A stretch of DNA of 64,000 bases from a virus (taxonomy: Duplodnaviria; Heunggongvirae; Uroviricota; Caudoviricetes), in IMG/VR virus record IMGVR_UViG_2718218131_000002, one strand, 5' to 3'. Below the pieces are notes generated by a model. That model was not told where the DNA came from, searched no databases, and saw only the letters and a program-made list of their open reading frames with translations. The position numbers and the translations under genes were made by a program. Of the stretch, positions 2,070 to 19,724 are shown in pieces (positions within the stretch are counted from its first letter, which is position 1; each line of letters starts with the position of its first letter).

Positions 2070-2321
2070 TGAGATTAAAGTTTATTAGTTCAGATATTGA
2101 TTGGCTCTTTTGTGGAGTAGGGTAGAGTTAGTGTGTTTGTCTGCTTGGTGCCAGCAGCGGATATGTTTAACAACAGAAAGCATTCAGCATGGTTAGTGGA
2201 TTTGCAAAGTGGATTAGGATTTGAGAAACTTTGATGAAGTTGTAAAGCTTGTTTCTATAAAAATAGAAATTTAACTAATAGTTAAACACACCTCCAGCTT
2301 CATTGAAAAGGATTATTAGCT

Positions 2322-2609
2322 ATGATTGATCCACTTATTAGAAACTTACAGAGTGATATTGCACTACTCCAGCTTTATATCGCGCAACGCAAACAGGCAG
2401 GCTTTCATGACATGGAAAGAATAATTGAGTCATTGACCATCTTTATGTTTCGCGCGCTGAAAATGGGTGAACTGGTAAACATGAATCAGATTAAAGTTAA
2501 TTTTCCCGCCATTGATTTAGCTGATAATAAAAACATGATAGCAGTTCAAGTTACTACGAATGCAAGTCCAGCAAAAATTAAAAAACTATCGAATCTTTTG
2601 AGAAAATAA
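2322..2609 (+). CDS. SMEK-like N-terminal domain ORF, probable 5' part of a frameshifted gene
   Basis: AT-rich; motif NFPAIDLADNKNMIAVQVTTNASPAKIKK resembles SMEK-type N-terminal domains; the downstream ORF frame is open back into this one. Confidence 0.35.
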   Translation: MIDPLIRNLQSDIALLQLYIAQRKQAGFHDMERIIESLTIFMFRALKMGELVNMNQIKVNFPAIDLADNKNMIAVQVTTNASPAKIKKLSNLLRK

Positions 2610-2725
2610 ATGAAATAGGAGAGAGTCTGAAAGATAAATACTCTACTTTATATATTTTTGGTTTTTGTAAAGCCTCAAGATACCTAACTCCAAGTTATTG
2701 TAAAATAATCGACCCCAGCTATTTC

Positions 2726-3220
2726 GTGAATGAACTTTGCGATAAAGCAGATGAAGATATGGTCCAGGATATGATTGACGCCATTCGACGCCATCATGAT
2801 TATACATCATTACATCCATGGAGTGATAAAGATTCACTCGAAATTATACTCAATATTATTAATCGCAATGCAATAAAACATCGGATGAGTTGCGAAGGCA
2901 GTCTGTCTGATATGCTCACTGGTTTAAAAGAAATTAATGAAGTAATTACAAAAGGAACAATTCAACGTAAGCAACGTTCAAAATCGATATCTGACTTCAA
3001 AGATCAAAGCATGGTGAAATTTATGAGAGGTGTAATGGATGATTTGTCTGTTATTCAAGCCATAGTGAACAAATCTAAAGTTAACCAAGGTGATATGGTT
3101 TATATAAGCCATGAAGATATGATTAATATTGATAAATTAAAAGCTAAAATAGCAAGTGATTCATCAGAGATTGCAAGGCTAAATAATATTGATATAACAC
3201 TAAATGTTGTTGATTTATAA
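2726..3220 (+). CDS. hypothetical protein, probable 3' part of the same SMEK-like gene
   Basis: Frame has no stop back to at least 2582, overlapping the end of the previous ORF; listed start is GTG. Confidence 0.35.
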   Translation: MNELCDKADEDMVQDMIDAIRRHHDYTSLHPWSDKDSLEIILNIINRNAIKHRMSCEGSLSDMLTGLKEINEVITKGTIQRKQRSKSISDFKDQSMVKFMRGVMDDLSVIQAIVNKSKVNQGDMVYISHEDMINIDKLKAKIASDSSEIARLNNIDITLNVVDL

Positions 3221-3534
3221 TTGTCGATTTAGCAAAACAGAGAATGCTTTGAAAGTTTCACCGAGAAATATTTATTGTGAACCTCCTTATTGTTTATCGA
3301 CTTTTACTCTCCGCTCATTGCAGTACTGTCGGAGAAGGCTACTATGTACAAGAAGCAGCTAACATAAGCGAGCATCACTATTGATATTAGGAAGAGTATA
3401 TAAAAACTTCATGCTGAACCTTACAAAAGTAGGTAAACCGGCAATGGCCTAAGTGGCAGGGTCATGTTGATCCGGCACTGCCGAGCTAATAATTAACAAG
3501 CAAATCACTCTTTCTAATAATTTGTTGAAATAAA

Positions 3535-4194
3535 CTAAATATGTATATGTTTACCAACAACCACATATGAACTACCTGCTTTGCTCCATGATTTTATTAT
3601 TTCTAAATTATTATCTGAGCATATTTTACTTACAGTATCCACATCTAATAAACCATAGTAGAAAGCATTGCGAGAGTTTTGGTATATATACCCATGCAAA
3701 TGTTTAATACCGCTCTCGTACCTCTTGAAATAAGAACTTTTGTATTGATTGACAATCAGTGCTTCACCATCACTCTTTAATAATTCTCTAATCGCACTGA
3801 GGACTTTGTGAATTGTGGATTCACATGGAATTGCGGAAAGCACGTTTGCGCAAAGTATGAAATCATAATGATTTGTTATTTTATCTATATTTTCATAAGA
3901 AACAATATTAGCATTCTTATAGTTATTTATCACGTAATCTGGAATCGTGGTTTGTACACCTCTGATAATTTGCACTCTTTCTAGTTGTCTTCTGGAATCT
4001 AAAAATGTCACAGTTTCAAATTTATTTACTAATTGTTCTGAATATCTAAGTTTTCCACATCCAAAATCAAGGGCATTGCCATTTTTATTAGTGCTTTCAA
4101 TCTGTTTACAGAGATAGTTAGATGGCATAGTGTGCGGTTTCGCTGCATTTTCTGAACGTATGTTTATTCCATTTATTTTGTAATTCAAAATCAA
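3535..4194 (-). CDS. class I SAM-dependent methyltransferase
   Basis: Motif I LDFGCGKLRY and Rossmann-like order; AT-rich codon usage. Confidence 0.6.
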   Translation of the reverse strand: MILNYKINGINIRSENAAKPHTMPSNYLCKQIESTNKNGNALDFGCGKLRYSEQLVNKFETVTFLDSRRQLERVQIIRGVQTTIPDYVINNYKNANIVSYENIDKITNHYDFILCANVLSAIPCESTIHKVLSAIRELLKSDGEALIVNQYKSSYFKRYESGIKHLHGYIYQNSRNAFYYGLLDVDTVSKICSDNNLEIIKSWSKAGSSYVVVGKHIHI

Positions 4195-4200
4195 CCTCGT

Positions 4201-4908
4201 TTAAAAAATATTGTTATTGTTAAAGAATTCTTTTATTTTGCTATCAGGTATTTGTCTTACTTGGCTTTCTGTTCTTGGTTTAACTGATGCTATGAAAATA
4301 AGGAAGTCAAATGCGACAAGAGAAATAATCCACAACCAAAGATTAATTAAAGAGCCAGTAACAGAGAATATATTTGTTAATTTGGCGATACTTATTATTA
4401 AAATAGTAACAAATGCGATTACTGTATGTTCAAAGAAAACCCAAAAGTAATAAACTTTGTTCCAGAAAAGTTCAACGTAATGTTTGTCTTTTAACTCTTT
4501 AACTTCTGGGTAATACAGTTTACTCATTACCTTGTGAGATTCATCAGTAGTTAATTTTCTCGTAACGCCTGCAATTTTTGCTAATGGTTTAATAATTAAA
4601 TGACTATCCCACATCTTCCTTATTCCAATAATTTTTGCTACATTATTATGTAGATCTAAAGCTCCACTAATTACTGACCAAAAAACTGAAGATGCAATTG
4701 GTAATATGCCAAAGGTTAATATCCATTTAATAAATTCCTCGTAGTCTTTAACGGGGGGGATATACTTGGCATTAATGCCAACCAATGGCATGTAGCCATA
4801 AATGACTAATGATAGGTAAAATATAAATGTAGTAATAAAAGTCGCCTTATGGAGCATAGGCAACATTTCATTATAACTCTTTGGTGGTTCTAACATTTTA
4901 CTCTCCAA
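4201..4908 (-). CDS. polytopic membrane protein of unknown function
   Basis: 235 aa with several long hydrophobic segments; 6-nt gap to the methyltransferase downstream on the same strand. Confidence 0.5.
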   Translation of the reverse strand: MESKMLEPPKSYNEMLPMLHKATFITTFIFYLSLVIYGYMPLVGINAKYIPPVKDYEEFIKWILTFGILPIASSVFWSVISGALDLHNNVAKIIGIRKMWDSHLIIKPLAKIAGVTRKLTTDESHKVMSKLYYPEVKELKDKHYVELFWNKVYYFWVFFEHTVIAFVTILIISIAKLTNIFSVTGSLINLWLWIISLVAFDFLIFIASVKPRTESQVRQIPDSKIKEFFNNNNIF

Positions 4909-5638
4909 ACACTCAAAAAAAAGCTAATCTTCTATAATAACGAAATTCAGCTGGCACAATTAAAGATTAATTGCCACCAATTTCTTGATTTTATAATTTT
5001 ATCTAAATGTTTTTGATTAATCTAGTCCTAAAAGAAACCTACTGCATAAATATTTATGCTGATGACCCACTCCCTGTTCGTTAACACATAGCAACGTTAG
5101 TAATGCATCCTAAGTGATCAATATTTTTGCTAGCTTCATCTGCTCGCTCAAAGGGAACTATAATGTTGGCTTGCGTGTGACTTGGCATGTTTAAAGAAGT
5201 GCTGGTGGTGACTGGTTGCTGTTTTCCATTTCCACAGAACAAAATCATAGAAACTATACCCAGTAGTTGTATTGAATCACTGACGAGACAGCCTCATATT
5301 TATCAGGACTGGTGTACGTCCAATACAGGAGGTTGTGGTGCTGGTTCTCAAATGTGCGCTGGCTATTGCTGCTGTAATGGCAATTTATTGTCTTGCTGTT
5401 GTTCTTATGGATCACCTTTCTGATTGATTTCATATTGGCGAGGTAACGGTAGTTAAGTAGAATTGCTGCGGGTGCTTGAGGCTATCTGCCTCGGGCATCA
5501 ACACCAAAGGCAGATAGAGAAAAGCCCCAGTTAACATTACGCGTCCGGCAAGACGCTTAACATTAATCTGAGGCCATATCTATGCTCTACACACGTAGGT
5601 TAGCCTCTTACGTGCCGAAAGGCAAGGAGAAGCAGGCT

Positions 5639-5794
5639 ATGAAGCAGCAAAAGGCGATGTTAATCGCCCTGATCGTCATCTGTTTAACCGTCATAGTGAC
5701 GGCACTGGTAACGAGGAAAGACCTCTGCGAGGTACGAATCCGAACCGGCCAGACGGAGGTCGCTGTCTTCACAGCTTACGAACCTGAGGAGTAA
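5639..5794 (+). CDS. hok: Hok/Gef family type I toxin (HokD/RelF-like)
   Basis: MKQQKAMLIALIVICLTVIVTALVTRKDLCEVRIRTGQTEVAVFTAYEPEE is a near-exact Hok family match from memory; in-frame upstream extension from 5582 looks like a mok-like leader. Confidence 0.85.
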   Translation: MKQQKAMLIALIVICLTVIVTALVTRKDLCEVRIRTGQTEVAVFTAYEPEE

Positions 5795-5863
5795 GAGACC
5801 CGGCGGGGGAGTAATCTCCCGCCACCTCTGATGTGCCAGGCATCCTCAACGCACCCGCACTTA

Positions 5864-5886
5864 ACCCGCTTCGGCGGGTTTTTGCA
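5864..5886 (+). terminator. rho-independent terminator after hok
   Basis: CCCGCTTCGGCGGG hairpin followed by T-run. Confidence 0.55.
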
Positions 5887-5959: not shown

Positions 5960-6610
5960 ATGAATGAAAATCAGTTAGCTCCTTGTTGGGAATTTCAACC
6001 TTATCTTGCTGAAAACTATGTTCGCCACTTGTTGGCGGAGATCGCTAACGTACTTGAGCAGCTGTACTATCATAAGCACGCATTAGACAGCAACTGGTCT
6101 GAAGGTGTAAGGGCTTATGATTGGGTCAGAAATCATCTTATTCAAAATGAAGATGCAATTCCTGGCCTTGAGATGATTTCCAAGGGGTTGGACTATGTAG
6201 TTGCTTTAAATAAAGTTCCGCTACAATTTACCAAAGATTGCATTAATAACCCCAAAAAGAAACATCGTCTGCGTCGAAATAAAGTAGAGTATGAGCAACT
6301 CTCATTGTTTGGTGATGTTGAGGCTGAGCAAGATATTACATGGCGAGTCATAGCTGAGCCTTTTTTATCCGAAGAGGGCGATGGTGAATTAGAGTCCACA
6401 CTGCCTCGTTGGGAGGTAGCTCTTGTTGGATTTAATACTTATGGTGCTCAGATTAGTATAGTTTCTCATCAATCTACAGCATCGATGCCGCTTATGCCTC
6501 TTGATTATAACACACTCCCTGACGAAGCGGAGATTAATAAGGTGCCTCTTCGTCGGCGTACGAAGGATAAAGATTTGGATGTGAGCAGTGATGGAACATC
6601 AGGTGAATAA
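5960..6610 (+). CDS. hypothetical protein, candidate toxin/effector partner of the downstream XRE-peptidase
   Basis: 216 aa; 3' end overlaps the next gene by 23 nt; no motif recognised. Confidence 0.4.
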   Translation: MNENQLAPCWEFQPYLAENYVRHLLAEIANVLEQLYYHKHALDSNWSEGVRAYDWVRNHLIQNEDAIPGLEMISKGLDYVVALNKVPLQFTKDCINNPKKKHRLRRNKVEYEQLSLFGDVEAEQDITWRVIAEPFLSEEGDGELESTLPRWEVALVGFNTYGAQISIVSHQSTASMPLMPLDYNTLPDEAEINKVPLRRRTKDKDLDVSSDGTSGE

Positions 6611-7694
6611 CTTCACTGAGTATCGGGGTGATAAGCTCAAACTAGCGAGAATGGCTGTTGGGCTTTCTTGTGAAGAGTTAGCCGAAAAAATTGGCAAGAC
6701 AAAGCAATTCGTTAGCAAACTGGAGAAGGGGTGCAGGCCATCGGAGCAATGTCTTGAGTTAATATCTTCAGCGCTTATGATTAAGTCCAGTTTTCTTTTT
6801 ACTGAACGAAAATACGCTCTGGAAAGTGATGTCTGCCATTTTCGGAGTAAGAAGTCCAGGACTCAAACGCTGACTAATAGTGTATTGGCCAGGGCTGAGA
6901 TTCTTAATATTATAATTTCTGCTGTTGAAGGTGAAATCGAATTTCCTGACGTTAACATACCGGAGCACCCAGGGGCTGAATTACTTACTCCGAATGATAT
7001 TGAGCGAGTGGCAGAAGATTGTCGCCGTGCCTGGAATTTAGGTCTTGGCCCTATATCATCAATGGTTAAATTGGCGGAGAGTTTAGGGGTAATCGTTGCG
7101 CATGTTACGGGAGTCGATGATCGTGTTGATGCTTTTACTGTTCACAATAACAGGCCTGTTATCATCAGGAACAATGTTAAAAAAAGCATATGTAGATTTC
7201 GCTCTGATTTAGGTCATGAATTAGGGCATTTAGTAATGCATGAGGGCATAACGACAGGTGATAAACTTACGGAATCACAAGCCGATCACTTTTCGAGCGC
7301 CTTATTAGTTCCCAGGTTATCTTTCATTAAAGAATTTCCACGAATACGAGGTAAGCAATTCGACTGGAATGCTCTGGTTGAATTTAAACTTAGATGGAAA
7401 ATCAGCCTTAAAATGTGTATTTATCGAGCCAGCGCATTAGGCTTATTGACCCAGGAACAGGCAAGAACTGGCTATATGCATCTTAATTCCAGAGGGTATA
7501 CGAGAGTTGAACCTGGTGATGAACTTTTGCGCCCTGAAGAACCCGGTATGCTGGCCGAGGCGATTGAAATGCTGGATGATGCAACCTGGCTAAGAATTCT
7601 TATGAAAACTGGCTTGAGCCAAGATTTAATTCGTGAGTTGTTCTCCATCAACAGACCTATTACAAATCCAAGAAATATTTTCCAGATTGTTTGA
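6588..7694 (+). CDS. XRE-family HTH fused to ImmA/IrrE-type Zn metallopeptidase (COG2856-like)
   Basis: N-terminal HTH (LARMAVGLSCEELAEKIGKTKQFVSKLEKG) and HEXXH motif (HELGHLVMHE). Confidence 0.7.
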   Translation: MMEHQVNNFTEYRGDKLKLARMAVGLSCEELAEKIGKTKQFVSKLEKGCRPSEQCLELISSALMIKSSFLFTERKYALESDVCHFRSKKSRTQTLTNSVLARAEILNIIISAVEGEIEFPDVNIPEHPGAELLTPNDIERVAEDCRRAWNLGLGPISSMVKLAESLGVIVAHVTGVDDRVDAFTVHNNRPVIIRNNVKKSICRFRSDLGHELGHLVMHEGITTGDKLTESQADHFSSALLVPRLSFIKEFPRIRGKQFDWNALVEFKLRWKISLKMCIYRASALGLLTQEQARTGYMHLNSRGYTRVEPGDELLRPEEPGMLAEAIEMLDDATWLRILMKTGLSQDLIRELFSINRPITNPRNIFQIV

Positions 7695-9514: not shown

Positions 9515-9880
9515 ATGACTGAACGCATAGAATTTGTTTTGCCTTACCCGCCGACGGTGAACACCTACTGGCGACGTCGTGGCAGCACATATTTTGTGTC
9601 AAAAGCCGGTGAGCGTTATCGCCGGGATGTGGCACTTATTGTTCGCCAGCAGTGGCTGAAATTAAACCTGTCCGGAAGGCTGGCGATAAAGATTATTGCA
9701 GAGCCACCGGATAAGCGCCGCCGCGACCTGGACAATATCCTGAAGGCACCACTGGATGCGCTTACGCATGCCGGACTACTTATAGACGACGAGCAGTTTG
9801 ATGAAATCAATATTGTGCGCGGTCAGCTCGTTTCTGGTGGGCGGCTGGGCGTGAAGATTTACAAAATTGAAAGTGAGTGA
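9515..9880 (+). CDS. rusA: Holliday junction resolvase RusA
   Basis: 121 aa; LPYPPTVNTYW N-terminus and D..DNI acidic motif typical of RusA. Confidence 0.85.
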   Translation: MTERIEFVLPYPPTVNTYWRRRGSTYFVSKAGERYRRDVALIVRQQWLKLNLSGRLAIKIIAEPPDKRRRDLDNILKAPLDALTHAGLLIDDEQFDEINIVRGQLVSGGRLGVKIYKIESE

Positions 9881-10443
9881 GCATAAATATGATATACCCG
9901 GAAATTACAGGCAAAAGCGGTGAGCATTTACGCCTGAAAACGCTGGAAAGTGTCTGGATCCAGGGGAAACTGCGTATGTGGGGGCGTTGGTCGTATATTG
10001 GCGACGGTAAGACGGGAAATATGTTCAACCAATTACTGACCTCTAAAAAGCTGACAAAAACGGCAATTAACGAGGCGCTCCGGAGGATGAAAAAAGCGGG
10101 TCTGGACAAACCTGAACTTGAGGCTTTTTTGCGGGATATGATCAACGGCAATCAAAAAAGCTGGCTGGCACATTGTACCGATTCAGAGGCGTTAATAATC
10201 GACAGGGTTATTGGTGAAGTACTGGCAGGTTATCCCGGGCTGCTCAATGTTCTGAGTCAGCGTTATGTGGGGCGGGGGATGACTAAGCGCAAAATGGCTG
10301 AACTGCTGAATGATGCACATCCGGAATGGAGTTTAAGAACCTGTGAAAGACGCATTGAGCATTGGCTAAAGGTGGCAGAATTTATTTTGTACAAACCAAT
10401 GGTTATGGCTTTTGGTATAGAGAAAAAAGTTATTGCTTTTTGA
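9877..10443 (+). CDS. late-gene antiterminator Q-like protein
   Basis: Position between rusA and tR'/lysis region; size and Cys/His pattern fit the Q family. Confidence 0.6.
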   Translation: MSINMIYPEITGKSGEHLRLKTLESVWIQGKLRMWGRWSYIGDGKTGNMFNQLLTSKKLTKTAINEALRRMKKAGLDKPELEAFLRDMINGNQKSWLAHCTDSEALIIDRVIGEVLAGYPGLLNVLSQRYVGRGMTKRKMAELLNDAHPEWSLRTCERRIEHWLKVAEFILYKPMVMAFGIEKKVIAF

Positions 10444-11015: not shown

Positions 11016-12074
11016 ATGGCTAATACTGTAAAAATATCCAGTTGTGAGTTAATCAACGCTGATTGCCTGGAATTTATCCAGACCTTACCGGAAAACTCTG
11101 TCGATCTGATAGTCACAGACCCGCCATACTTTAAAGTGAAGCCCGAGGGCTGGGATAACCAGTGGAAGGGCGACGATGATTACCTGAAGTGGCTGGACCA
11201 GTGTCTGGCGCAGTTCTGGCGGGTGCTGAAACCTGCCGGAAGTCTTTACCTGTTCTGTGGCCATCGCCTGGCATCTGACATTGAAATCATGATGCGTGAA
11301 CGCTTCAATGTGCTGAACCATATTATCTGGGCGAAGCCGTCCGGACGCTGGAACGGGTGCAACAAGGAAAGCCTGCGGGCGTATTTTCCGGCCACAGAAC
11401 GCATTCTGTTCGCGGAACATTATCAGGGGCCGTATCGTCCGAAAGATGATGGCGATGAGGCGAAGGGCAGGGCACTGAAACAGCATGTGATGGCCCCGCT
11501 GATTTCTTACTTTCGTGATGCGCGTGCTGCTCTTGGGATAACGGCAAAACAGATTGCAGATGCCACAGGAAAGAAAAACATGGTGTCGCACTGGTTCAGT
11601 GCCAGTCAGTGGCAGCTACCGAACGAAAGCGATTATCTGAAATTACAGTCGCTGTTTGCCCGGGTGGCAGAAGAGAAACATCAGCGGGGAGAACTGGAAA
11701 AGTCCCATTACCAACTGGTCAGCACATACAGTGAGCTGAACCGGCAGTATATGGAACTGCTGAGTGAATATAAGCATCTGCGGCGGTATTTTGGCGTGAC
11801 GGTGCAGGTGCCGTATACCGATGTGTGGACGCATAAACCGGTGCAGTTCTATCCCGGGAAACATCCGTGCGAAAAACCGGCAGAAATGCTGCAGCAGATA
11901 ATCAGCGCTAGCAGTCGTCCGGGTGACCTGATTGCAGATTTTTTCATGGGGTCGGGTTCGACAGTGAAAGCGGCACTGGCGCTCGGGCGTCGTGCAATTG
12001 GCGTTGAGCTGGAGACTGAACGTTTTGAGCAGACGGTTCGGGAAGTACAGGATTTAGTCAGCCAGAACGGATGA
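11016..12074 (+). CDS. phage DNA N6-adenine methyltransferase (DPPY motif)
   Basis: TDPPYF catalytic motif and C-terminal SAM-binding FMGSGST; typical between Q and tRNAs in stx-type phages. Confidence 0.8.
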   Translation: MANTVKISSCELINADCLEFIQTLPENSVDLIVTDPPYFKVKPEGWDNQWKGDDDYLKWLDQCLAQFWRVLKPAGSLYLFCGHRLASDIEIMMRERFNVLNHIIWAKPSGRWNGCNKESLRAYFPATERILFAEHYQGPYRPKDDGDEAKGRALKQHVMAPLISYFRDARAALGITAKQIADATGKKNMVSHWFSASQWQLPNESDYLKLQSLFARVAEEKHQRGELEKSHYQLVSTYSELNRQYMELLSEYKHLRRYFGVTVQVPYTDVWTHKPVQFYPGKHPCEKPAEMLQQIISASSRPGDLIADFFMGSGSTVKAALALGRRAIGVELETERFEQTVREVQDLVSQNG

Positions 12075-12114: not shown

Positions 12115-12190
12115 GGCCCTTTAGCTCAGTGGTGAGAGCGAGCGACTCATAATCGCCAGGTCGCTGGTTCAAATCCAGCAAGGGCCACCA
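12115..12190 (+). tRNA. ileZ: tRNA with anticodon CAT (Ile2/Met type, ileZ-like)
   Basis: 76-nt cloverleaf, acceptor GGCCCTT/AAGGGCC, anticodon loop CTCATAA, 3' CCA. Confidence 0.8.
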
Positions 12191-12197
12191 TCACATA

Positions 12198-12274
12198 CCG
12201 CCATTAGCTCATCAGGAAAGAGCGCCAGCCTTCGAAGCTGGTTGCGCGGAGTTCGGGTCCCCGAAGGCGGTCCA
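12198..12274 (+). tRNA. argN: tRNA-Arg (anticodon TCG), argN-like
   Basis: 77-nt cloverleaf, anticodon stem CCAGC/GCTGG, loop CTTCGAA, 3' CCA; one acceptor and one T-stem mismatch. Confidence 0.65.
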
Positions 12275-12287
12275 TTATCTGTATCCT

Positions 12288-12364
12288 GCGTTGTTAGCTC
12301 AGCCGGACAGAGCAATTGCCTTCTAAGCAATCGGTCACTGGTTCGAATCCAGTACAACGCGCCA
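12288..12364 (+). tRNA. argO: tRNA-Arg (anticodon TCT), argO-like
   Basis: 77-nt cloverleaf, T-loop GGTTCGAATCC, anticodon loop CTTCTAA, 3' CCA. Confidence 0.8.
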
Positions 12365-12852
12365 CACTTATTTTCCCTGGCTCGCTTTTGCGGGCTTTTT
12401 TTTAAATGTCTCACAATTCAGGCGGTTGACTGTTGTCTGGTTTGCGGGGAGTTTGTTAAAAGAAACTGGCATGGTGAATCCCCCTGTGCGGAGGGGCAAT
12501 CAGCGAGTAGGTATATGGGATAATCGCGGATTCAGGTGCTGGTACTGAATTCACCGGGAGGCACCCGGCACCATGCAATGGCACATAGCGCCACTCTCCA
12601 GCCCCTCTCCGGAGGGGCTTTCTTATGGACAAAAAAAGCCCGCGCTGGGAGACGCGGGCGGCAAGGAATAAACAACAAAACGTGAAGTAATATTTCAGCT
12701 GGCGAATAATATCCGACAGTAATCACTCTGCGCAATAGCGCGGCCTTTTTCGTATTGCGGGCCGTTGTCTCTCTTCTGCCATTGTCCTGTAACTTCCGGA
12801 CTTCAGCCCGCTCCTCATTTTACTCACAATATTATCCCGGCCGGGAGGATTC

Positions 12853-14706
12853 ATGGCATTTAAACACTATGATGTTGTCAGGGCGGCGTCGCCGTCAGAT
12901 CTTGCGGAAAAGCTGACACATAAACTGAAAGAGGGCTGGCAGCCGTTTGGTAGTCCGGTGGCCATAACCCCTTATACTCTGATGCAGGCGATTACAGCAG
13001 AAGGTGATGTGGTGGTCAGTGGTGCAACTGAGCCGGATTGGTACTACGTCATCGTACTGGCCGGGCAGTCCAATGCCATGGCTTACGGTGAAGGGCTTCC
13101 GCTGCCGGATTCATACGATGCTCCGGATCCGCGCATTAAACAGCTGGCGCGCCGCAGTACAGTGACGCCGGGTGGGGCTGCCTGCAGATATAACGATATT
13201 ATTCCGGCCGACCACTGCCTGCATGATGTGCAGGATATGAGTACGCTGAATCATCCGAAGGCAGACCTGAGCAAAGGGCAGTACGGCTGTGTCGGCCAGG
13301 GCTTACATATTGCCAAAAAACTGCTTCCGTATATCCCGAATAACGCGGGGATCCTGCTGGTACCATGCTGTCGTGGTGGTTCGGCATTCACCCAGGGCGC
13401 GGAGGGGACATTCAGTGCGGACACGGGGGCCAGCCAGGATTCGGCACGCTGGGGTGTGGGTAAACCGTTATATCAGGACCTGATTGCGCGCACTAAAGCT
13501 GCATTACAGAAGAACCCGAAAAATGTGTTGCTGGCGGTGTGCTGGATGCAGGGAGAGTTTGACATGAGCGCCGCCACCTACGCACAGCAACCTGCGCTGT
13601 TTACAGCCATGCTGAAGCAGTTTCGTGCTGACCTCACTGTGTTTAACGCGCAGTGTCATGGTGGCAGTGCTGCAGATGTGCCGTGGATTTGTGGTGACAC
13701 GACGTATTACTGGAAAAATACATACGCTACCCAGTACGACACCGTGTACGGAGGGTATAAAAACAGGGAGAGTGAGGGCGTTTATTTTGTGCCCTTCATG
13801 ACAGACGGTAACGGCGTCAATACCGCCACTAACGCGCCGGCAGAAGATCCGGATATTCCGGCATCAGGATATTACGGTGCGGCATCGAGAACGAATGGAA
13901 ACCAGGTATCATCAAACCGCCCGACACATTTCAGTTCATGGGCGCGCAGGAGCATTATTCCGGATCGTCTGGCAACCGCTATTCTGAACGCAGCCGGGCG
14001 CACCTCAGCCTTCATCAGTGGTAAGGCACCGGAAATCAAACCCTCGCCCGGCGGCAACACGCCATCGGGTCCGTCTGCAGATACGTCCGTTCGCACAATC
14101 TCCCTGCTGCCGGCAGCCGGAGAGGCTGCTGCGCAGGGCTGGAGCATTAAGGATGGCGGAATTCAGTTGTCAGATGGTGTATTTAAGATCACCAAGCAGA
14201 GCAATAAAACCTGGTCCCTGACGCATCCGGTGGATGACGCAATTACCCTGCTGACACAGGGCGGCAGACTGACCTGTAAGTTCCGCCTGTCAGGCGCACT
14301 GACCAACAATCAGTTCGGGCTGGGGATTTATCTGTATACGGATGCTCCCGTTCCTGATGGTGTGGCGATGACGGGTACCGGTAATCCGTTCCTGATGTCG
14401 TACTTCACTCAGACCACTGACGGCAGAGTGAATCTGATGCATCACAGGAAAGCCGGAAACACGAAGCTGGGGGAGTTCGGCGATTACGGTAACGACTGGC
14501 AGACGCTGGAGCTGGTGTTCACCGCCGGCAGTGCCACGGTTACTCCGAAACTGAATGGAGTGGCTGGCCCGGCATTCCAGGTTATAAAAGACAGTCTGAC
14601 ACTGGGACTGAATGCGCTGACGCTGACGGATGTTACAAAAAATGCAGCGTATGGCGTTGAGATAGAAAGTCTGGTGCTGGAGATAAATGCACCGGCATCA
14701 TCATAA
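12853..14706 (+). CDS. prophage sialate O-acetylesterase (NanS-p-like)
   Basis: 617 aa; conserved N-terminus [21 protein letters not shown] and SGNH-type [11 protein letters not shown] motif; sits where stx-phages carry the gene downstream of stx. Confidence 0.7.
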
Positions 14707-18510: not shown

Positions 18511-18837
18511 ATGACTAAAAATACTCGTTTTTCCCCCGAAGTCCGTCAGAGGGCGATTCGTATGGTTCTGGAAAGTCAGGGCGAATATGACTCACAGTGG
18601 GCGGCAATTTGTTCCATTGCCCCAAAGATTGGCTGTACACCGGAGACTCTGCGTGTCTGGGTACGCCAGCATGAGCGGGATACCGGAGGCGGTGATGGCG
18701 GGCTCACCACCGCTGAACGTCAGCGTCTGAAAGAGCTGGAACGTGAAAATCGTGAACTGCGCCGCAGTAACGATATCCTTCGCCAGGCTTCCGCTTATTT
18801 TGCAAAGGCGGAGTTCGACCGCCTCTGGAAAAAGTGA
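18511..18837 (+). CDS. IS629 OrfA (HTH/leucine-zipper part of transposase)
   Basis: [26 protein letters not shown]... is the characteristic IS629 OrfA. Confidence 0.85.
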
Positions 18838-19724
18838 TGCCACTGCTGGATAAGCTGCGTAAGCTGTACGGGGTCGGACCGGTATGCAGTGAACTACATA
18901 TTGCCCCGTCAACGTATTACCACTGTCAGCAACAGCGACATCATCCTGATAAACGCAGTGCCCGTGCGCAGCGCGATGACTGGCTGAAGAAAGAGATACT
19001 GCGCGTATACGATGGGAATCATCAGGTATACGGTGTGCGTAAAGTCTGGCGTCAGTTGTTACGGGAAGGAATCAGGGTAGCCAGATGTACAGTGGCGCGC
19101 CTCATGGCGGTTATGGGACTTGCCGGTGTTCTCCGGGGTAAAAAGGTCCGCACTACCGTCAGCCGGAAAGCCGTTGCCGCAGGCGACCGCGTAAACCGTC
19201 AGTTTGTGGCAGAACGTCCTGACCAGTTGTGGGTGGCTGATTTTACTTACGTCAGCACATGGCAGGGGGGCGTCTATGTGGCGTTCATCATTGATGTGTT
19301 TGCCGGATACATCGTGGGGTGGCGGGTCTCATCGTCTATGGAAACGACATTCGTGCTGGATGCTCTGGAGCAGGCGTTATGGGCCCGTCGACCGTCCGGC
19401 ACAGTCCATCACAGTGATAAAGGTTCTCAGTATGTATCGCTGGCCTACACACAGCGGCTTAAGGAAGCCGGATTACTGGCATCAACAGGAAGTACTGGTG
19501 ACTCGTATGACAACGCGATGGCGGAGAGCATCAATGGCCTTTACAAAGCGGAGGTAATACACCGTAAGAGCTGGAAAAACCGGACAGAAGTGGAGCTGGC
19601 CACACTCACGTGGGTGGACTGGTATAACAATCGACGATTGCTGGAAAGGCTGGGCCATATCCCACCGGCAGAAGCAGAAAAAGCTTATTATGCTTCCATC
19701 GGAAACGATGATCTGGCAGCCTGA
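18834..19724 (+). CDS. IS629 OrfB (DDE catalytic part; made by -1 frameshift from OrfA)
   Basis: Overlaps OrfA in the -1 frame; IS3-family DDE transposase. Confidence 0.85.

Follow-up and report, generated by a model that had tools for sequence, protein, structure and literature searches.

A predicted small membrane-peptide gene beside a complete hok/mok/sok locus in the nin region of an Escherichia coli lambdoid prophage

Organisation of the locus

The window, meaning the whole stretch of 64,000 nucleotides that was analysed, carries a hok toxin gene and, directly upstream of it on the same strand, a small ORF with a GTG start. Both had been noticed in a preliminary description, which placed an AGGAGG motif near position 5328 and a GTG-initiated frame of 29 codons about 300 bp before hok. 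These positions were borne out, with AGGAGG at 5327-5332, the GTG at 5338 and 301 bp between this GTG and the hok ATG. The locus is part of the nin region of an E. coli lambdoid prophage, and its strand is that of the early rightward operon. The segment 5200-5900 is 100% identical to several E. coli chromosomes, and its hok portion is matched in 4766 of 5426 complete genomes. The gene order in FORC 064 is dicA, dicC, a YdaT-family gene, a replication-like gene, DUF977, a variable cassette and hokD. In addition to three tRNAs and the STnc100 sRNA, the window holds the following genes around the locus:

140-661: YdaT
1647-2069: DUF977
3535-4194, minus strand: methyltransferase
4201-4908: hypothetical protein of 235 aa
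8459-9514: DUF968, downstream of hok
9515-9880: RusA, downstream of hok
9877-10443: Q antiterminator, downstream of hok
11016-12074: DNA methylase

The hok toxin gene and its antisense RNA

The features assigned to the hok part of the locus are as follows:

5435-5463, plus strand: hok promoter, TTGGCG and TAGAAT with a 17-nt spacer (promoter scan; conserved in related loci)
5470-5885, plus strand: predicted full-length hok mRNA, from its 5' end (tac) to the intrinsic terminator (Rfam and fold)
5514-5590, minus strand: predicted Sok antisense RNA of about 77 nt, over the mok start codon and its ribosome-binding site (homology)
5582-5794, plus strand: mok frame, an in-frame 19-codon extension of hok (ORF table; GAGG upstream at 5570-5573)
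5599-5625, minus strand: predicted Sok promoter, TTGCCT (5625 to 5620), a 17-nt spacer and TAACCT (5604 to 5599), read from the sequence
5639-5794, plus strand: hok (hokD-type) toxin gene, ATG 5639 to TAA 5794, 51 aa (Pfam; identity to K-12 HokD)
5844-5856, plus strand: predicted fbi (fold-back inhibition) element, the pairing partner of the 5'-terminal tac at 5470-5481
5863-5885, plus strand: predicted intrinsic terminator ending the hok mRNA (from the terminator scan; 7-bp stem, of which 5 pairs are GC, then a T run)

The preliminary identification of Hok is confirmed by its match to the Pfam family HOK_GEF (PF01848), with E=1.2e-23 and 42 of 42 profile positions covered, and by 100% identity to K-12 HokD over 51 of 51 residues. 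The name hokD is the RefSeq label on DNA identical to the hok gene of the window. The hok promoter lies directly 5' of position 5470, where a match to the Rfam leader RF01794 begins. This match (5470-5644) reaches 114 bits, the gathering score being 59, and spans the full length of the model. RF01794 is named 'sok' but models the hok-sense leader, as its K-12 match is on the mokC/hokC strand, and the annotated K-12 sokC is found inside that match on the opposite strand. The layout of mok and hok agrees with that of the annotated K-12 mokC and hokC; of 98 related loci, 92 have an intact mok extension, the N-terminal codons of which differ among alleles. The 417-nt hok transcript is strongly structured relative to shuffled sequences (z=-7.8), and both its minimum-free-energy and its centroid fold pair the first 11-12 nt of the mRNA with approximately 5844-5856. 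The fbi segment is also conserved in K-12 hokD.

A Sok-type antisense RNA had been expected opposite the leader, with the reservation that it could not be positioned from sequence. The expectation holds and the reservation can be lifted: alignment with K-12 sokC, from whose annotation the ends of the RNA were transferred, places a predicted Sok transcript on the minus strand from 5590 to 5514, with a promoter at 5625 to 5599 and a predicted terminator-like hairpin. The RNA would be 77 nt long rather than the 59 nt of sokC, the difference being an 18-nt insertion in the loop of the hairpin. Its predicted fold has an unpaired 5' tail, then a long hairpin, and ends in a U-rich run (z=-3.98). The promoter was assigned by its position relative to the annotated K-12 sokC, and its hexamers and spacing are kept in 98 related loci, a minority having TTGACC or TAATCT. 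The segment just downstream of this promoter, where the 5' tail of Sok and the opening codons of mok are encoded, varies among alleles. On these sequence features, 5470-5885 is a complete hokD-type hok/mok/sok type I toxin-antitoxin locus.

K-12 hokC/mokC/sokC has the same architecture, with an overlapping mok, an antisense Sok over the mok start, 5'-3' fold-back pairing and the RF01794 leader; the Sok hairpin differs by the insertion described above. The hok/sok system of plasmid R1, which we take to share this architecture including the tac-fbi fold-back, is plasmid-borne, whereas the window locus is in a prophage. By analogy with the R1 model, the stable hok mRNA (5470-5885) would be held inert through pairing of its 5' and 3' ends, and synthesis of Hok would require that the overlapping mok frame be translated. 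Sok (about 5590 to 5514, minus strand), a short-lived RNA, would in turn pair over the mok start region.

The closest K-12 counterpart is hokD (relF) of the Qin prophage, which shares near-identical DNA with the window over a stretch that begins at the hok ribosome-binding site and takes in fbi and the terminator. Both genes are in lambdoid prophages, upstream of DUF968, RusA and Q genes. In K-12, however, hokD is truncated where relBE abuts it (relE adjoining), and the promoter, 5' leader, mok start and Sok, all present in the window, are missing. Homology of K-12 hokD to the window begins only at about 5624, and the window copy is therefore the complete form. The hokW-sokW pair of the Sakai prophage Sp5 in E. 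coli O157:H7 is likewise a hok/sok system of a lambdoid prophage, and experiments have shown that it is of type I, with a toxic Hok that Sok neutralises, and that it aids phage release (Takada et al. 2021, PMC8621323). The hok loci of O157:H7 have the hok promoter and leader in common with the window. The one in O157:H7 strain 8368, which may not be hokW, retains only a decayed 3' stub of the small ORF. The hok/sok half of the locus is thus correctly identified and already known, and all that it adds is the complete ancestral form of the truncated K-12 hokD.

Coding evidence for the small ORF

The second part of the locus begins with two features:

5327-5332, plus strand: Shine-Dalgarno sequence AGGAGG, 5 nt before the GTG
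5338-5427, plus strand: small ORF of 29 codons and a stop (GTG start, TGA at 5425-5427), encoding MLVLKCALAIAAVMAIYCLAVVLMDHLSD

The translation can be written as (V/M)LVLKCALAIAAVMAIYCLAVVLMDHLSD. Copies were retrieved from IMG/VR with a degenerate 32-nt pattern drawn from codons 15-25 of the small ORF only, and all 127 matches proved to be the small ORF. About 125 of the 127 are intact, two being frameshifted and one having lost its stop, and this proportion carries a bias against copies broken in codons 15-25, as the pattern lies inside the frame. Further searches were carried out with a 42-aa database version of the peptide, with DNA patterns and with tblastn. The retrieved copies comprise 29 distinct sequences, of which 27 are intact, one (two copies) has a 2-nt deletion and one is the stop-loss form. 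The GTG start is invariant across 28 ORF variants, and the Shine-Dalgarno sequence is retained as GGAG, GGGAGG or GGGGG in all sequence classes.

The pattern of variation is that of a translated frame. Across 28 distinct ORF sequences there are 32 variable sites, a small number because this is a young family of narrow range. Codon position 3 accounts for 19 of them (P=0.002), and for 15 of 26 outside the codons constrained by the pattern (P=0.009). The pN/pS ratio is 0.25-0.31 when pooled and 0.13-0.25 for the most divergent pairs. The replacements are conservative (A/V/T, V/I/L, M/V/I, D/E and H/R). Synonymous changes occur across codons 2-13, which indicates that the N-terminal half is translated too. 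When six diverged copies are aligned, the Shine-Dalgarno sequence, the GTG at 5338 and the whole frame are conserved. The Shine-Dalgarno sequence and GTG also persist where the upstream flank is unrelated (BL21) or where the downstream flank is unrelated and lacks hok (ST70).

An alternative, which we consider quite unlikely, is that the frame is untranslated and that the DNA is conserved as upstream sequence of the hok promoter, as a homology arm for cassette exchange, or through recent ancestry. All copies are at least about 80% identical, the segment adjoins a hypervariable insertion site, and the small ORF is annotated in none of 60 sampled RefSeq records, all of which would suit such a reading. 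The third-position bias and the low pN/pS are, however, specific to the frame that starts at 5338. The other two frames of the same strand contain stops in all or nearly all variants, and in the one opposite-strand frame that is open in 23 of 28 variants, the variable sites fall at codon position 1. The frame is conserved even in copies with no hok promoter downstream, and decayed copies have lost more than the frame: the two frameshifted ones also have a mutated Shine-Dalgarno sequence (AGAAAG) and a mutated -10 hexamer (TGTATT), a joint loss of promoter, Shine-Dalgarno sequence and frame that is expected if these features work together.

A further argument against this alternative comes from Shigella. 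A tblastn search found a full-length copy, 76% identical, on 136 large plasmids of Shigella and enteroinvasive E. coli (EIEC), and this virulence-plasmid copy is intact and lies upstream of icsP. On the S. flexneri plasmid that was examined, an ATG stands exactly at the position of the predicted GTG, so the start in this plasmid lineage has changed from GTG to ATG. The promoter hexamers and AGGAGG are kept there, and the 90 nt of the ORF align without an indel at 80% nucleotide identity. The adjoining hok leader, by contrast, is only 68% identical, has acquired five gaps and then vanishes.

Two overlapping frames were considered and rejected. A Cys-rich frame of 78 aa (5187-5423, plus strand) is interrupted by stops in nearly all variants, and for a 59-aa minus-strand ORF (5254-5433), annotated in phage HannyBb, it is codon position 1 that coincides with the variable sites. 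The small ORF was described at first as a weak call; conservation, pN/pS, third-position bias and the Shigella copy with ATG now make it well supported, on comparative grounds, as a real coding gene. A literature search for Ribo-seq, mass-spectrometry or transcription-start data on the small ORF found none.

Promoter and boundaries of the small gene

Upstream of the Shine-Dalgarno sequence are two hexamers that could form a promoter for the small ORF:

5272-5277, plus strand: putative -35 hexamer, TTGAAT
5295-5300, plus strand: putative -10 hexamer, CATATT, with a predicted start at about 5307

With 8 of 12 positions matching consensus, these hexamers fall below the threshold of the promoter scan and were not called by it. 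Nevertheless, TTGnnn stands exactly 17 nt 5' of CATATT in six diverged classes, and the spacer between them is only 54% identical. CATATT itself is 100% identical in these six classes and in the Shigella plasmid copy, and its TGTATT variant is confined to the two copies with the mutated Shine-Dalgarno sequence and frameshift. Fixed spacing of hexamers around a divergent spacer is the pattern expected of a working sigma-70 promoter, and it is a strong inference from this comparison that TTGAAT-17-CATATT is a sigma-70-type promoter of the small ORF. The predicted leader is then about 30 nt long, with the Shine-Dalgarno sequence exposed.

The conserved unit extends over about 170 nt, from the -35 hexamer to approximately 12 nt beyond the stop codon of the small ORF. 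To its left, sequences diverge completely at breakpoints near 5140 and 5260-5290, and dozens of different flanks are found. To its right, about 115 of 130 copies run into the hok promoter at an identical junction, with 8 nt separating the end of the ORF from the hok -35 hexamer. In the other 15 or so of the 130 copies, unrelated DNA takes the place of hok, and here the breakpoint is inside the hok -35 hexamer. Conversely, in many hok loci, such as those of SCU-104, an O157:H7 strain and AHB10, all that is left of the small ORF is a 3' stub, and the genes inserted at such loci encode QueH, an alpha/beta hydrolase and a SEC-C protein. Since the small ORF occurs without hok and hok without the small ORF, the two are separable modules, and the frequent truncation of the small gene by cassette insertions shows that it is dispensable. 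The terminator scan found no terminator between the small ORF and the hok promoter. A 'terminator' at 5362-5381 was rejected, as it is a weak stem with 3 GC pairs in the coding sequence of the small ORF.

The peptide and its distribution

The single hydrophobic helix read from the peptide in the preliminary description agrees with prediction, with a GRAVY of 1.86 and a best 19-aa Kyte-Doolittle window of 2.70. One transmembrane helix is predicted at residues 6-24, preceded by Lys5 and followed by an acidic tail, DHLSD or DRLSD. From this composition we infer that the peptide inserts in the inner membrane.

Searches of Pfam, NCBIfam and PHROG families returned no match to the peptide. A word-indexed search of 5.8 billion proteins yielded just 24 clusters, every one of them from E. 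coli or E. albertii and at least 77% identical. Similarly, an exhaustive phmmer search of 1.84 billion representatives recovered only the same peptide and one hydrophobic match of low identity, probably due to chance. In GTDB contigs, with one genome per species, the pattern matched E. albertii, E. ruysiae and S. flexneri. It also matched three short contigs in metagenome-assembled genomes labelled as unrelated taxa, likely Escherichia contamination, and the two remaining matches are chance ones, approximately the number expected from the information content of the pattern. The family is therefore found in Escherichia and Shigella only, and all its members are at least 76% identical.

Within E. 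coli, the small-ORF region is present at 80% coverage or more in 1718 of 5426 complete genomes, and K-12 is without it. The exact peptide appears in GenBank as 'membrane protein' or 'hypothetical protein', for example in REL606, BL21(DE3) and SMS-3-5. A full-text literature search for the peptide sequence or its accession numbers found no mention. Two published candidates proved to be distinct: SMP3, from a CFT073 Ribo-seq preprint, is a DUF6404 protein of a different locus, and the Pas sRNAs (bioRxiv 10.64898/2026.05.13.724894) map elsewhere, near esterase and lysis genes.

Resemblance to type I toxins

The likeness to type I toxins drawn in the preliminary description stands as far as size and hydrophobicity are concerned. 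TisB, ZorO, Ibs, ShoB and DinQ, type I toxins of E. coli, are peptides of similar length with a single hydrophobic helix, and a GRAVY of 1.86 is in keeping with such a toxin. Furthermore, the small ORF is in a prophage, adjoins an authentic type I system and, in common with many toxic genes, is lost or truncated in some cases. It could accordingly be proposed that it encodes another type I toxin and that the RNA antitoxin went undetected, being either a weakly promoted cis-antisense RNA or a trans-acting RNA of the prophage.

The likeness does not extend to an antisense promoter or terminator, to RNA structure or to a toxin family, and the small ORF is a module independent of hok. Unlike TisB, ZorO, Ibs, ShoB and DinQ, the small ORF has no detected antisense or divergent sRNA and no long structured 5' UTR, and it has no sequence homology to them. 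Scans of its minus strand found neither promoter nor terminator, with the proviso that weak or non-sigma-70 promoters may escape them, and antisense hexamers picked by eye are not kept in copies without hok. The small-ORF mRNA (5307-5469) folds no better than shuffled sequences (z=-0.46; complement z=-0.09), in contrast to the hok mRNA. The upstream block 5144-5337 is also unstructured, with z-scores of +1.15 and +0.99 for its two strands. Rfam gave no match at the small ORF at E<=1, and NCBIfam, Pfam and PHROG assign it to no toxin family. The short predicted leader with its exposed Shine-Dalgarno sequence also argues against RNA control, as does the minimal module of about 170 nt, which holds only a promoter, a Shine-Dalgarno sequence and the ORF and leaves no room for a second gene. 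In view of these negative results, the interpretation as a type I toxin lacks support, and we regard it as very unlikely; most likely the small gene is not a classical RNA-controlled toxin.

Several candidate elements around the small ORF were tried and discarded. An antisense promoter TTAACT-18-TGAAAT (5456 to 5427) has its -35 in sequence that is replaced where hok is absent. A stretch of 11-nt complementarity between 5286-5296 and the hok 5' end is not conserved in other sequence classes. A long structured 5' UTR starting from a perfect TATAAT at 5159-5164 shows no structure signal, and the block is absent in other classes.

Interpretation

The reading that we favour, with a probability of roughly 0.7, is that the locus consists of two adjacent and separable modules, a complete hok/mok/sok system and an autonomous gene for a small membrane peptide. 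The small gene would be a prophage accessory ('moron') gene with its own promoter, a short unstructured leader and a strong Shine-Dalgarno sequence. Its 29-residue product, mostly one hydrophobic helix with an acidic C-terminal tail, would sit in the inner membrane, and as a best guess it probably binds or perturbs a membrane component in the lysogen. Transcripts of the small gene probably continue into the hok locus because there is no terminator between them.

Read-through of this kind, which might supply or modulate hok mRNA, or a modulation of Hok by the peptide in the membrane, could tie the small gene to hok, and the identical junction directly upstream of hok in about 115 of 130 copies, the missing terminator and two small inner-membrane products (the location of the small-ORF product being deduced) would fit; this is very improbable, however, as the small gene is intact without hok in chromosomal copies and beside a decayed hok on Shigella plasmids, hok loci function without it (K-12 hokC, hokW-sokW of Sp5 (PMC8621323) and the stub-only loci), and the adjacency is explicable by common descent.

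The two-module reading has parallels among known small genes. MgtS, AcrZ and PmrR likewise have fewer than 50 codons, one predicted transmembrane helix, a Shine-Dalgarno sequence and purifying selection, and phage 'moron' genes likewise have their own promoter, here a deduced one, and occupy an accessory slot of a prophage. The small gene differs from all of these in its very narrow distribution (Escherichia/Shigella) and in having no terminator of its own. The peptide represents a family that has no name and a narrow distribution but is familiar in its general kind.

A more far-reaching version, which we consider unlikely, is that the peptide founds a new Escherichia/Shigella-specific family of membrane peptides, borne by prophages and virulence plasmids, that has a real phenotype in the lysogen and is present in roughly one-third of complete E. 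coli genomes yet unannotated in the reference. Phenotypes that could be envisaged under this version are those of a membrane toxin under control other than classical antisense, a factor in phage exclusion, or a modulator acting on Hok or on a host membrane protein.

Significance

The small gene is a concrete and testable addition to the catalogue of E. coli small proteins, and it is carried by REL606 and BL21(DE3), B strains in common laboratory use. If the gene has a phenotype, it would represent a widespread and overlooked prophage accessory function. If there is no phenotype, it would offer a clean case of a young and dispensable micro-gene.

Cassette exchange upstream of the small ORF

The interval between the DUF977 gene and the 29-codon small ORF upstream of hok (window ~2100-5140) is a hotspot for cassette exchange, with breakpoints at ~5140 and ~5260-5290, upstream of the small ORF. 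To the left of ~5140 the DNA is unrelated from locus to locus (73 distinct upstream flanks among the related loci), and the genes inserted there in these loci include those for QueH, a TPR protein, a SEC-C protein, an alpha/beta hydrolase and a DUF1971 protein. The window's own insert, a possible defence or moron island, consists of two genes:

3535-4194, minus strand, methyltransferase
4201-4908, minus strand, 235-aa hypothetical protein with hydrophobic stretches

Between the breakpoints lies a block of ~125 nt (window 5144-5270) whose conservation is limited to the commonest sequence class of small-ORF copies. It carries a perfect TATAAT (5159-5164) paired with a poor -35 hexamer; a conserved ORF is absent from the block, as is any RNA-structure signal on either strand (z ~ +1). 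Directly to its right, at the position of window 5270-5288, a perfect palindrome, TCTCATCAaTGATGAGA, replaces the -35 region in ~11 copies (the related loci L029, L030, L033 and L050, and others). The -35 region replaced by the palindrome in these copies is TTGAATCA(C/A)TGA(C/T)GAGA, and the replacement eliminates the TTG of the small-ORF -35 hexamer. Possible explanations for the palindrome are an operator, a hairpin and a gene-conversion tract.

In BL21 (L004, 1204-1613), the DUF977 gene and the small-ORF region have been fused by a deletion; the DUF977 frame terminates 40 nt into the small ORF, in a different frame. Here the small ORF keeps its Shine-Dalgarno site and an intact frame but has lost its own promoter, and its expression could come only from the upstream operon.

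A relic of the module on invasion plasmids

On the invasion plasmids of Shigella/EIEC, the DNA directly upstream of the virulence gene icsP is a remnant of the prophage small-ORF/hok module. We found neither an annotation nor a paper that mentions it, and a copy of the small ORF is present on 136 plasmids. On the S. flexneri plasmid NZ_CP026794.1 (L140), the positions are:

2430-2700, prophage-module relic
2881-3828, icsP

On this plasmid the small ORF is intact, begins with ATG and retains both its promoter and its Shine-Dalgarno site. After it, the hok promoter and leader are decayed and truncated, stopping ~290 nt short of icsP.

Other features of the window

Further features lie downstream of hok:

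5960-7694, two-protein region directly downstream of hok
12115-12361, three tRNA genes
12440-12630, STnc100 sRNA (138 bits)
12853-14706, 617-aa ORF
18792-18908, ALIL pseudoknot, an IS3-family frameshift element

The first region encodes a 216-aa protein of unassigned function (PHROG 5786, E=8e-85), just downstream of hok, and, overlapping it, one of 368 aa that carries HTH_3 and Peptidase_M78 (ImmA/IrrE-like) domains. Together the two genes resemble a regulatory or defence-like module. The tRNA genes, STnc100 and the 617-aa ORF follow one another in a layout that Stx-like lambdoid phages typically show downstream of Q, and the ALIL pseudoknot marks an insertion sequence.

Sok annotation and mok alleles

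Rfam gives the family RF01794 the name 'sok antitoxin'. Its matches (window 5470-5644) lie on the hok-sense strand and stop at the hok AUG, so what the family models is the leader of the hok mRNA and not Sok. In K-12 (L135) the match covers 502-654, and sokC lies at 553-611 on the opposite strand. If RF01794 hits were labelled as Sok on the strand of the hit, the antitoxin would be placed on the wrong strand.

When 98 related loci are compared, the opening codons of mok (window 5582-5600 and equivalents), complementary to the 5' tail of Sok, form distinct alleles (MLYTRR, MLDTCR, MNGKSR and others), unlike the Sok promoter, the remainder of mok and hok, which are nearly invariant. These mok-start alleles would fit allele-specific recognition between Sok and hok among the several hok copies per genome.
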